This document shows positions 1,139 through 1,592 of a DNA stretch of 64,000 nucleotides, one piece after another. The DNA is from Escherichia coli. Lineage in GTDB: Bacteria > Pseudomonadota > Gammaproteobacteria > Enterobacterales > Enterobacteriaceae. Where the stretch lies: NCBI RefSeq assembly GCF_024502345.1, contig NZ_JALDNN010000001.1; one strand, written 5' to 3'. The notes below the pieces were generated by a model, which was given only the letters and a program-made list of their open reading frames with translations, made no database searches and was not told the DNA's origin. A program made the translations under genes and the position numbers. Every line of letters begins with the position of its first letter. The first letter of the stretch is position 1.

Positions 1139-1592
1139 AGATGTTGTTATATGTTGATTCATCATCTTGTTGCGCTCCTTTCATGAGCTAAGCCACATAT
1201 TGCCACTGGCGCAAGGAGCGCGCAGGGGGCGGCCAATCGCCGCCGCCCCCTGCCCCCCCGGGCTCTGGCGAACAAAATCGCCGCTGCGCGGTGCCCTCGA
1301 CTTATCCCTTACGGCTACCGGGTCGGGCGCGAGGTAACATCCCTGTAAAACGCGCCCTCAGCCCACATCCATGTGGGCTGCCCCGGCCTTCAGGGAACGC
1401 CTCGGCGATTTTGACGCCACCAACATCGGTGCAGTTTGTAATTAAAGCGCAAGAATATCTTTAAATGAAAACGAATACTCTACTGCTCCTTATGCATAAC
1501 ATTTCCTTTTAATTGCAACTTTACTCGTCCTTCCGCTTTCAGTAGTGTGTCATCGCGCATTTCGACTTCATCTTTGCAAGGACTGGGTTTTC

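Follow-up and report, generated by a model that had tools for sequence, protein, structure and literature searches.

The GC-rich block in the spacer between aqpZ and lysO of this Escherichia coli genome is, in our reading, the repeat known as TRIP1a or RRS-lysO: one copy of a GC-rich, folding repeat family of the Enterobacteriaceae, about 275 bp long, that would act at the DNA level by provoking gaps in lagging-strand synthesis. We put the probability of this reading at about 0.85. The element is already known, having been named in 1999 and characterised experimentally in 2023-2024. Our additions are modest: its exact bounds, a conserved multi-hairpin fold, a strand bias, an inverted allele, and genera that carry multiple copies.

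The block lies near the start of the stretch of DNA that we analysed (64,000 nucleotides; hereafter the window), where the gene order is aqpZ (403-1098, plus strand), lysO (1593-2492, plus strand) and hcp. Between the aqpZ stop at 1098 and the lysO start at 1593 there is a spacer of 494 bp. GC content is 0.60-0.80 across approximately 1170-1440 and 0.30-0.43 in the flanks, with sharp edges, so that the GC-rich block described in the first-pass annotation is real. The two hairpins reported there are both present, and both are longer than described (12 and 10 bp). A hairpin followed by a T-run, belonging to aqpZ, is found at 1108-1139, upstream of the element. We found no promoter-like and no terminator-like sites in window 1000-1700, no hairpin plus T-run within or downstream of the element, and no mapped lysO transcription start in a search of the literature. 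The K-12 RefSeq annotation lists no feature for this spacer.

The absence of a canonical REP motif, also proposed in the first-pass annotation, holds as well: the Rfam model naRNA4, which is derived from REP, has no match within 1167-1441, and we therefore rejected REP/BIME as an identity for the block. The same model does match elsewhere in the window (REP/BIME-type naRNA4/ES036 matches at 18116-18196, 19198-19267, 55334-55411 and 62080-62167); these are ordinary E. coli features, as is the small RNA RybB at 30870-30948 (plus strand, 105 bits).

Window 1100-1500 is identical to E. coli K-12 at 399 of 401 positions, and the flanking genes are the same (aqpZ, lysO, hcp). The K-12 position that we take for RRS-lysO is 915016-915281. 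A BLAST search against K-12 shows that 222 bp of the block (1201-1422) are a near-perfect match to a copy in the dusC-yohP spacer, the ends being more diverged, and that a third, partial copy without 125 bp lies at putP-efeU. The TRIP1 repeats were first reported by Rudd (1999) and are described in Li et al. (2024; PMC10888264). According to the latter, TRIP1a lies 31 bp past the aqpZ terminator and 158 bp ahead of ybjE (lysO), TRIP1b at putP-efeU is 146 bp long and lacks 125 bp, TRIP1c is found at dusC, and TRIP1d and TRIP1e are found in some strains; each copy type in E. coli is locus-specific and old. TRIP1a and TRIP1c were rediscovered as the “replication risk sequences” RRS-lysO and RRS-dusC, with a published size of 222 bp (Pham et al., NAR 2023, PMC10287960; NAR 2024, PMC11194060). 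Because the 222-bp match to the dusC copy corresponds to 1201-1422, the extent of 1200-1430 given in the first-pass annotation is almost exactly the published RRS core; the true element is larger (1167-1441). Locus, sequence, GC content, the G-quadruplex (G4) tract and the inverted twin at dusC are all the same, and we are thus looking at the element itself. The window copy differs from K-12 by one base in the G4 tract.

The bounds of the element can be taken from a natural inverted allele. In E. coli E69, exactly window 1167-1441 aligns in the inverted orientation while aqpZ (window 1-1101) and lysO (1486-2600) align directly, and the spacers on either side of the inverted element are short and unrelated. 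The same 275-bp span is common to paralogues and orthologues. The element begins 69 nt past the aqpZ stop and ends 151 nt ahead of the lysO start, and its G-rich strand, which carries the G4 motif, is the minus strand of the window.

At the left end is a hairpin with a long variable loop (1173-1220; stem 1173-1178/1215-1220; helix 12 of the consensus described below). Two of its six pairs show compensatory changes; for example, GCGCTCC/GGAGCGC is replaced by CGTTCAC/GTGAACG in other genera. It is followed by a perfect 12-bp hairpin rich in G and C (1222-1253; stem 1222-1233/1242-1253; helices 10 and 11), in which five of eight pairs have compensatory changes among 61 copies; the first stem of the first-pass annotation (gggggcggc/gccgccccc, 1225-1233/1242-1250) is perfect and lies inside it. 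This hairpin overlaps the G-quadruplex-forming tract GGGGGGGCAGGGGGCGGCGG (1259-1240, minus strand), which was found by a motif search and scores 2.12 with G4Hunter. The corresponding K-12 tract is GGGGGTGCAGGGGGCGGCGG. The single difference lies at window 1254, where C replaces the A of K-12, so that on the G strand GGGGGTGCAGGGGG becomes GGGGGGGCAGGGGG, that is, a run of seven G instead of GGGGGTG. This G7 form or a longer G-run also occurs in two further aqpZ-lysO copies, one from E. albertii and one from another E. coli. The G4 potential is confined to one strand: the G strand reaches +2.12, and the strongest C-rich window scores -1.20.

An internal module of about 125 bp (approximately 1254-1378), delimited by alignment and by BLAST of K-12 TRIP1b, is missing from the short form of the element. 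The short form is represented by TRIP1b at putP-efeU and by a short inverted allele in strain Z1323HEC0475. A CCCCGG(G/C)C direct repeat stands at both edges of the deletion, for which the figure of 125 bp comes from Li et al. (2024; PMC10888264).

The right-hand part of the element is predicted by RNAalifold and by pair counts to fold, on the minus strand, into a multi-branch core domain (1273-1413) closed by the stem 1273-1280/1406-1413. Its inner stems are 1295-1301/1399-1405, 1305-1309/1392-1396, 1313-1315/1386-1388 and 1319-1322/1382-1385, and a small hairpin is placed at 1281-1291 by the consensus. Helices 1-3 and 9 of the core include 14 pairs with compensatory changes. Two adjacent hairpins project within the core. 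One has a GGA loop (ACAGGGAUGU, 1346-1337; hairpin 1325-1357, minus strand); its helices 7 and 8 show compensatory changes and the GGA is invariant in 61 copies. The other, which is the second hairpin of the first-pass annotation, is a perfect 10-bp stem (1359-1380; stem 1359-1368/1371-1380, minus strand) with the loop AUGGAU within CAUGGAUG, a loop already prescribed by the pattern with which we gathered the family; six of the eight pairs of its helix 6 have compensatory changes. A long-range stem of 16 nt (1273-1288/1398-1413) encloses this second hairpin.

The fold of the element is far beyond chance. As single-stranded DNA, the 275 nt fold at -82.5 kcal/mol on the minus strand (z = -6.65) and at -78.5 kcal/mol on the plus strand (z = -6.90), and none of 200 dinucleotide shuffles folds as well on either strand.

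Is the fold maintained in evolution? We aligned 61 distinct full-length copies on the G strand without fitting the alignment to a structure; three blocks of the alignment were fixed by the search pattern and their columns are uninformative either way. RNAalifold predicts 58 pairs, 30 of which show compensatory double changes. Paired cells amount to 98.7%, compared with 89.1% in shuffles, and the covariation score is 0.303, compared with 0.123. On four of five measures none of 500 shuffles reaches the observed value, and on the fifth, the number of further pair types, ten of 500 do; slid controls are at most 43% paired. The hairpins are thus conserved, with covariation, in copies from 11 enterobacterial genera. 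There is also a strand bias. Of the 51 pairs that both strands independently predict, 15 contain G-U in the G-strand reading (30 cells) and 3 contain A-C (3 cells). This excess of wobbles suggests that the fold is under selection as a single strand, namely the G strand. The bias agrees with the RRS model, where unwinding lets the G strand fold, and it would suit an RNA just as well. G4Hunter gives at least 1.5 in a window over the G tract in 45 of the 61 copies, and about 1.0-1.2 in 10 copies that retain the fold. Judged from these sequences, selection may keep the whole folded single strand and not only the G4 tract.

The suggestion of the first-pass annotation that the block is a different class of extragenic repeat is borne out. 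A BLAST search with 1190-1440 finds it in 5425 of 5426 complete E. coli genomes, at 18,857 places in total, with a median of 3 and up to 10 places per genome. Besides the putP-efeU copy in E. coli, records in a plasmid collection, many of which are mislabelled pieces of chromosome, yield Klebsiella copies at approximately 85% identity. Up to 13 places are found in one K. pneumoniae chromosome, and Citrobacter records also carry copies. Dispersed loci number six in K. pneumoniae ATCC 13883 and seven in Enterobacter sp. ENT03. An alignment of six copies separates long ones of about 275 bp from short ones that lack about 125 internal bases, and already shows compensatory changes in both hairpins of the first-pass annotation. 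A scan of 100,044 species-representative genomes with the family pattern CGGGTCGGGC..CATCCATG..CCCGGCC returns 65 loci, of which two (in Paracoccus and Nocardioides) were dismissed as chance matches. The family is found in 11 genera: Escherichia, Pseudescherichia, Pseudocitrobacter, Enterobacter, Kluyvera, Klebsiella, Raoultella, Silvania, Atlantibacter, Leclercia and Citrobacter. Copies of the E. coli or Klebsiella type are also filed under Bacillus sp. (a contig of 583 bp with a coverage of 0.7), Desulfacinum, Sporobacter and “Proteobacteria” metagenome-assembled genomes; these contigs are probably enterobacterial contamination.

Several copies are associated with other repeats. In Pseudescherichia vulneris and Silvania hatchlandensis, about 75 nt of another repeat, which has a CCCCATCCCTGGGG hairpin of its own, are inserted between the small hairpin and the core, and one further locus (L023) resembles a chimera of these two repeat types. 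In Enterobacter sp. ENT03 a second conserved repeat unit of about 200 nt precedes each of the seven copies, and at three Atlantibacter loci an inverted second two-hairpin unit is found about 120 nt away; the repeat thus occurs in composite arrays in these genera. At alx-sstT, E. coli strain 2012C-4502 has TRIP1d (L009, 1554-2168), whereas K-12 has a different GC-rich repeat, of the type CCCTCTCCC...GGGAGAGGG (L010, 2047-2444). The same spacer can therefore be occupied by different repeat families in different strains.

We are interested in where the copies sit relative to genes and to replication. Among 49 loci with called neighbours on both sides, 24 are in convergent, 24 in tandem and only one in divergent contexts, and in the tandem contexts the G strand is sense in 12 and antisense in 12. 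The copies therefore lie at gene 3' ends with no preference of orientation relative to transcription, which argues against a cis-acting mRNA element and against a role in the lysO leader. In the window, GC skew of the plus strand is negative in seven of eight bins (8 kb each). This makes the minus, G-rich strand the probable lagging-strand template, in agreement with the published K-12 orientation and with the strand of the G4 motif in RRS. Across the family, local GC skew assigns 21 loci to one orientation relative to replication and 27 to the other, with signs that are contradictory along one Klebsiella scaffold.

A function at the DNA level has been demonstrated for the two long K-12 copies (Pham et al., PMC10287960, PMC11194060). 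RRS-lysO and RRS-dusC lie about 650 kb on either side of dif and are mutually inverted, and each is the end of up to 2 kb of single-stranded DNA, coated with RecA and SSB, on the lagging-strand template. Deletion of an RRS abolishes the peak, insertion elsewhere in the same orientation creates a new one, and inversion gives none; the gaps have been seen by ssGap-seq in MG1655 only. The G4 motif GGGGGTGCAGGGGGCGGCGG, present on one strand, stops Pol I, II and IV in vitro (Pham et al. 2024, PMC11194060). Deletion of both RRS requires a 200-kb amplification or the presence of another RRS, and when both are lost or inverted supercoiling is altered genome-wide (Pham et al., PMC10287960, PMC11194060). 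Pham et al. hypothesize that the pair is a transient “topological relief valve” (PMC10287960, PMC11194060). Applied to the window copy, the model would run as follows. As the fork unwinds the site, the G-rich strand, which is the minus strand of the window and would be the template for lagging-strand synthesis, may fold into a G-quadruplex and a set of hairpins. The lagging-strand polymerase would stall there and restart downstream, leaving a stretch of up to about 2 kb transiently single-stranded and bound by SSB and RecA. Together with its inverted dusC twin, about 650 kb away on the other side of dif, RRS-lysO might then act as the proposed relief valve for topological stress at the borders of Ter. 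The published work describes an active G4 with conserved position and orientation; what we see across the family is a multi-hairpin fold that is conserved, an inverted allele that is common, and a high copy number in some genera. With up to 13 places in K. pneumoniae and seven in ENT03, the family looks more like a repeat that disperses than like two fixed landmarks.

A functional parallel is the pilE G4 of Neisseria gonorrhoeae, a G-quadruplex that likewise forms on one strand and causes a gap or nick as the DNA is replicated; Pham et al. (PMC10287960, PMC11194060) cite it as the only earlier bacterial example. In contrast to RRS, the pilE G4 is a single-locus element for antigenic variation, depends on its own sRNA promoter, and does not belong to a repeat family that shares a multi-hairpin fold.

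The inverted allele bears directly on the relief-valve model. Using the E69 element plus its own spacers as the query and counting matches of at least 80% of the query, we find the inverted arrangement between the same genes in 896 of 5426 complete E. coli genomes (16.5%), including an O157:H7 strain; Li et al. (2024; PMC10888264) report 27% of “reverse” TRIP1a. The inverted lysO copies that we compared (L076, 20048-20504; L031, that of E69, 3881-4155; L002, 2900-3100) have different short spacers and lack the terminator hairpin that follows aqpZ in K-12. In O157:H7 Z1833 (L076), gene orientation and local GC skew are the same as in the window, and the G4 tract and GGA loops are on the gene-sense strand. 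Since the skew has the same sign, the leading strand would be copied from the G strand in this allele. Pham et al. saw no gap peak with an inverted RRS, and the allele is common, which is a caveat for the relief-valve model and at the same time a useful natural test of it.

Could the element be chiefly a selfish or neutral dispersed repeat, similar to MITEs or REPs, whose effect on replication at this locus is a by-product? The fold might then be retained for a putative single-strand transposition or recombination machinery, which the strand-specific wobble bias would fit as well. The multiple dispersed copies in Klebsiella and ENT03, the insertions, chimeras and arrays that combine it with other repeats, the coexistence of long and short forms and of both orientations at one locus, and the siting at gene 3' ends, as for REP and ERIC, all speak for this possibility. 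On the other hand, neither terminal inverted repeats nor a target-site duplication can be defined: the two ends, TTGTTGCGCT... and ...GTTTGTAA, do not match in inverted orientation, as those of a MITE would, and a 13-nt inverted repeat that spans the flanks (1164-1176/1446-1458) is not kept in other copies. We found no clean empty site, the K-12 alx-sstT spacer being filled by a different repeat, and we know of no transposase associated with TRIP1/RRS. Each E. coli copy type is locus-specific and old, and at least one copy is conditionally essential (Pham et al., PMC10287960, PMC11194060). We regard a chiefly selfish nature as rather unlikely; it is compatible with the DNA-level gap mechanism and does not exclude it. 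The known families that come nearest in this respect are not the same thing. Like REP/BIME, the element is a GC-rich extragenic palindrome at gene 3' ends, in both orientations, with a proposed role in chromosome topology (gyrase sites in the case of REP/BIME). However, TRIP1/RRS lacks the REP consensus, its unit is much longer, its copy number in E. coli is low, and to our knowledge it has no RAYT-type transposase. ERIC/IRU and MITE-like elements of the Enterobacteriaceae are likewise imperfectly palindromic, measure 100-300 bp, and come in longer and shorter versions through internal deletions or insertions. But ERIC is unrelated in sequence, has terminal inverted repeats and is usually co-transcribed, whereas in TRIP1/RRS no such end repeats could be defined and no bias of orientation is seen.

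Two further readings would place the function in RNA. The first-pass annotation had offered a regulatory or attenuator structure in the lysO leader, to which one may add a stabiliser or terminator of the aqpZ mRNA. The block is indeed very stable and close to both genes, 69 nt past the aqpZ stop and 151 nt ahead of the lysO start, and the inverted O157:H7-type allele lacks the terminator hairpin that K-12 has after aqpZ, which may let aqpZ transcription continue into the element. Yet in the window the aqpZ hairpin and T-run precede the element, none follows it, the same element is inverted at this locus in a sixth of the complete genomes, shortened in others, or found at unrelated loci with other neighbours, and promoter-bearing divergent spacers are avoided. 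Between forward and inverted alleles, only window 1486-1592 is conserved upstream of lysO. We therefore rejected both the lysO attenuator and the aqpZ terminator, and consider cis-regulation of the neighbours very improbable.

The other proposal, a small structured RNA, has a more specific form. The only match in the spacer in a permissive Rfam scan is to TwoAYGGAY (RF01731, clan CL00106; gathering score 43 bits), at 1275-1414 on the minus strand, with 30.6 bits (E = 0.057 for 4 kb). The match covers the full model (1-168) on the G strand of TRIP1a, and full-length matches are also obtained with cmscan on the G strand of TRIP1c (30.9 bits), TRIP1d (33.1 bits), a Citrobacter sp. copy (31.4 bits) and an Escherichia sp. 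ESNIH1 copy (29.9 bits). Both TwoAYGGAY and the G strand have a long closing stem, a short inner stem and two adjacent hairpins with GGA loops, and CAUGGAUG, the first loop, reproduces the consensus of the model exactly. Gardner and Eldai proposed CsrA as the binding partner of TwoAYGGAY. A related RNA made from the minus strand might thus bind a CsrA dimer through the two hairpins with GGA loops, ACAUGGAUGU and ACAGGGAUGU, which are separated by 28 nt, and act as a small sponge or a 3'-UTR tag. Both minus-strand loops resemble RUACARGGAUGU, the SELEX consensus of CsrA. GGA is invariant in both loops, the first of which was fixed by the search pattern, and the wobble pairs favour the G strand. 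Loop 1 is AUGGAU and loop 2 AGGGAU, with R instead of Y at the AYGGAY position; the copies from Silvania, Leclercia and Kluyvera have AUGGAU in both loops, and some Klebsiella copies have ACGGAC in loop 2.

Against this, no copy attains the gathering score at permissive or gathering thresholds; the copies score 29.9-33.1 bits, and we found no gathering-threshold match in 143 kb of related loci. Formal membership in TwoAYGGAY was therefore rejected. The best score seen, 37.8 bits, belongs to a separate module beside an RRS-like copy (L047, 1594-1657, minus strand) and covers the model core only. The outer stems of the element are also about twice as GC-rich as those of TwoAYGGAY, and for RRS it is a DNA-level function that has been shown (Pham et al.). 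The minus strand is antisense to both aqpZ and lysO and has no promoter-like or terminator-like site, and the even split of tandem orientations (12 and 12) indicates that co-transcription is not selected. The CsrA CLIP-seq table of Potts et al. (2017) contains no entries for dusC, yohP, aqpZ or ybjE and no coordinates 9150xx, 9151xx or 22291xx-22294xx, and dusC and ybjE are non-significant in all their expression measures; with neither promoter- and terminator-like sites nor a CLIP-seq entry for the two long K-12 copies, the element does not resemble CsrB or CsrC, and CsrA binding was dropped as a candidate. Folded single-stranded DNA also tolerates G-T wobbles, and the strand asymmetry does not require an RNA. 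A CsrA-binding RNA therefore seems improbable to us, and the structured-RNA idea of the first-pass annotation finds no support. A separate question is that of ancestry: that the two-hairpin core of RRS/TRIP1 (approximately 125 bp) and the orphan motif TwoAYGGAY are distantly related by descent is a doubtful but intriguing idea.

We suggest that the block be annotated as TRIP1a / RRS-lysO, a real, non-coding and strongly structured element, and not as a new RNA or attenuator. If the kinship with TwoAYGGAY were true, RRS may double as a CsrA-binding RNA where it is transcribed (dusC in K-12; aqpZ in the O157:H7-type inverted allele), or, alternatively, the “TwoAYGGAY RNAs” of gut Clostridiales and Gammaproteobacteria may be strand-specific folding repeats that act on DNA in the manner of RRS. 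For the RRS model itself, three observations matter: the fold is conserved in 11 genera with a wobble bias on the G strand while some copies have a weak G4; some genera carry many dispersed copies; and the lysO copy is inverted in a sizeable minority of natural E. coli. If it is the whole fold that is kept, the 16.5% of genomes with the inverted element would be a natural experiment on the relief-valve model.
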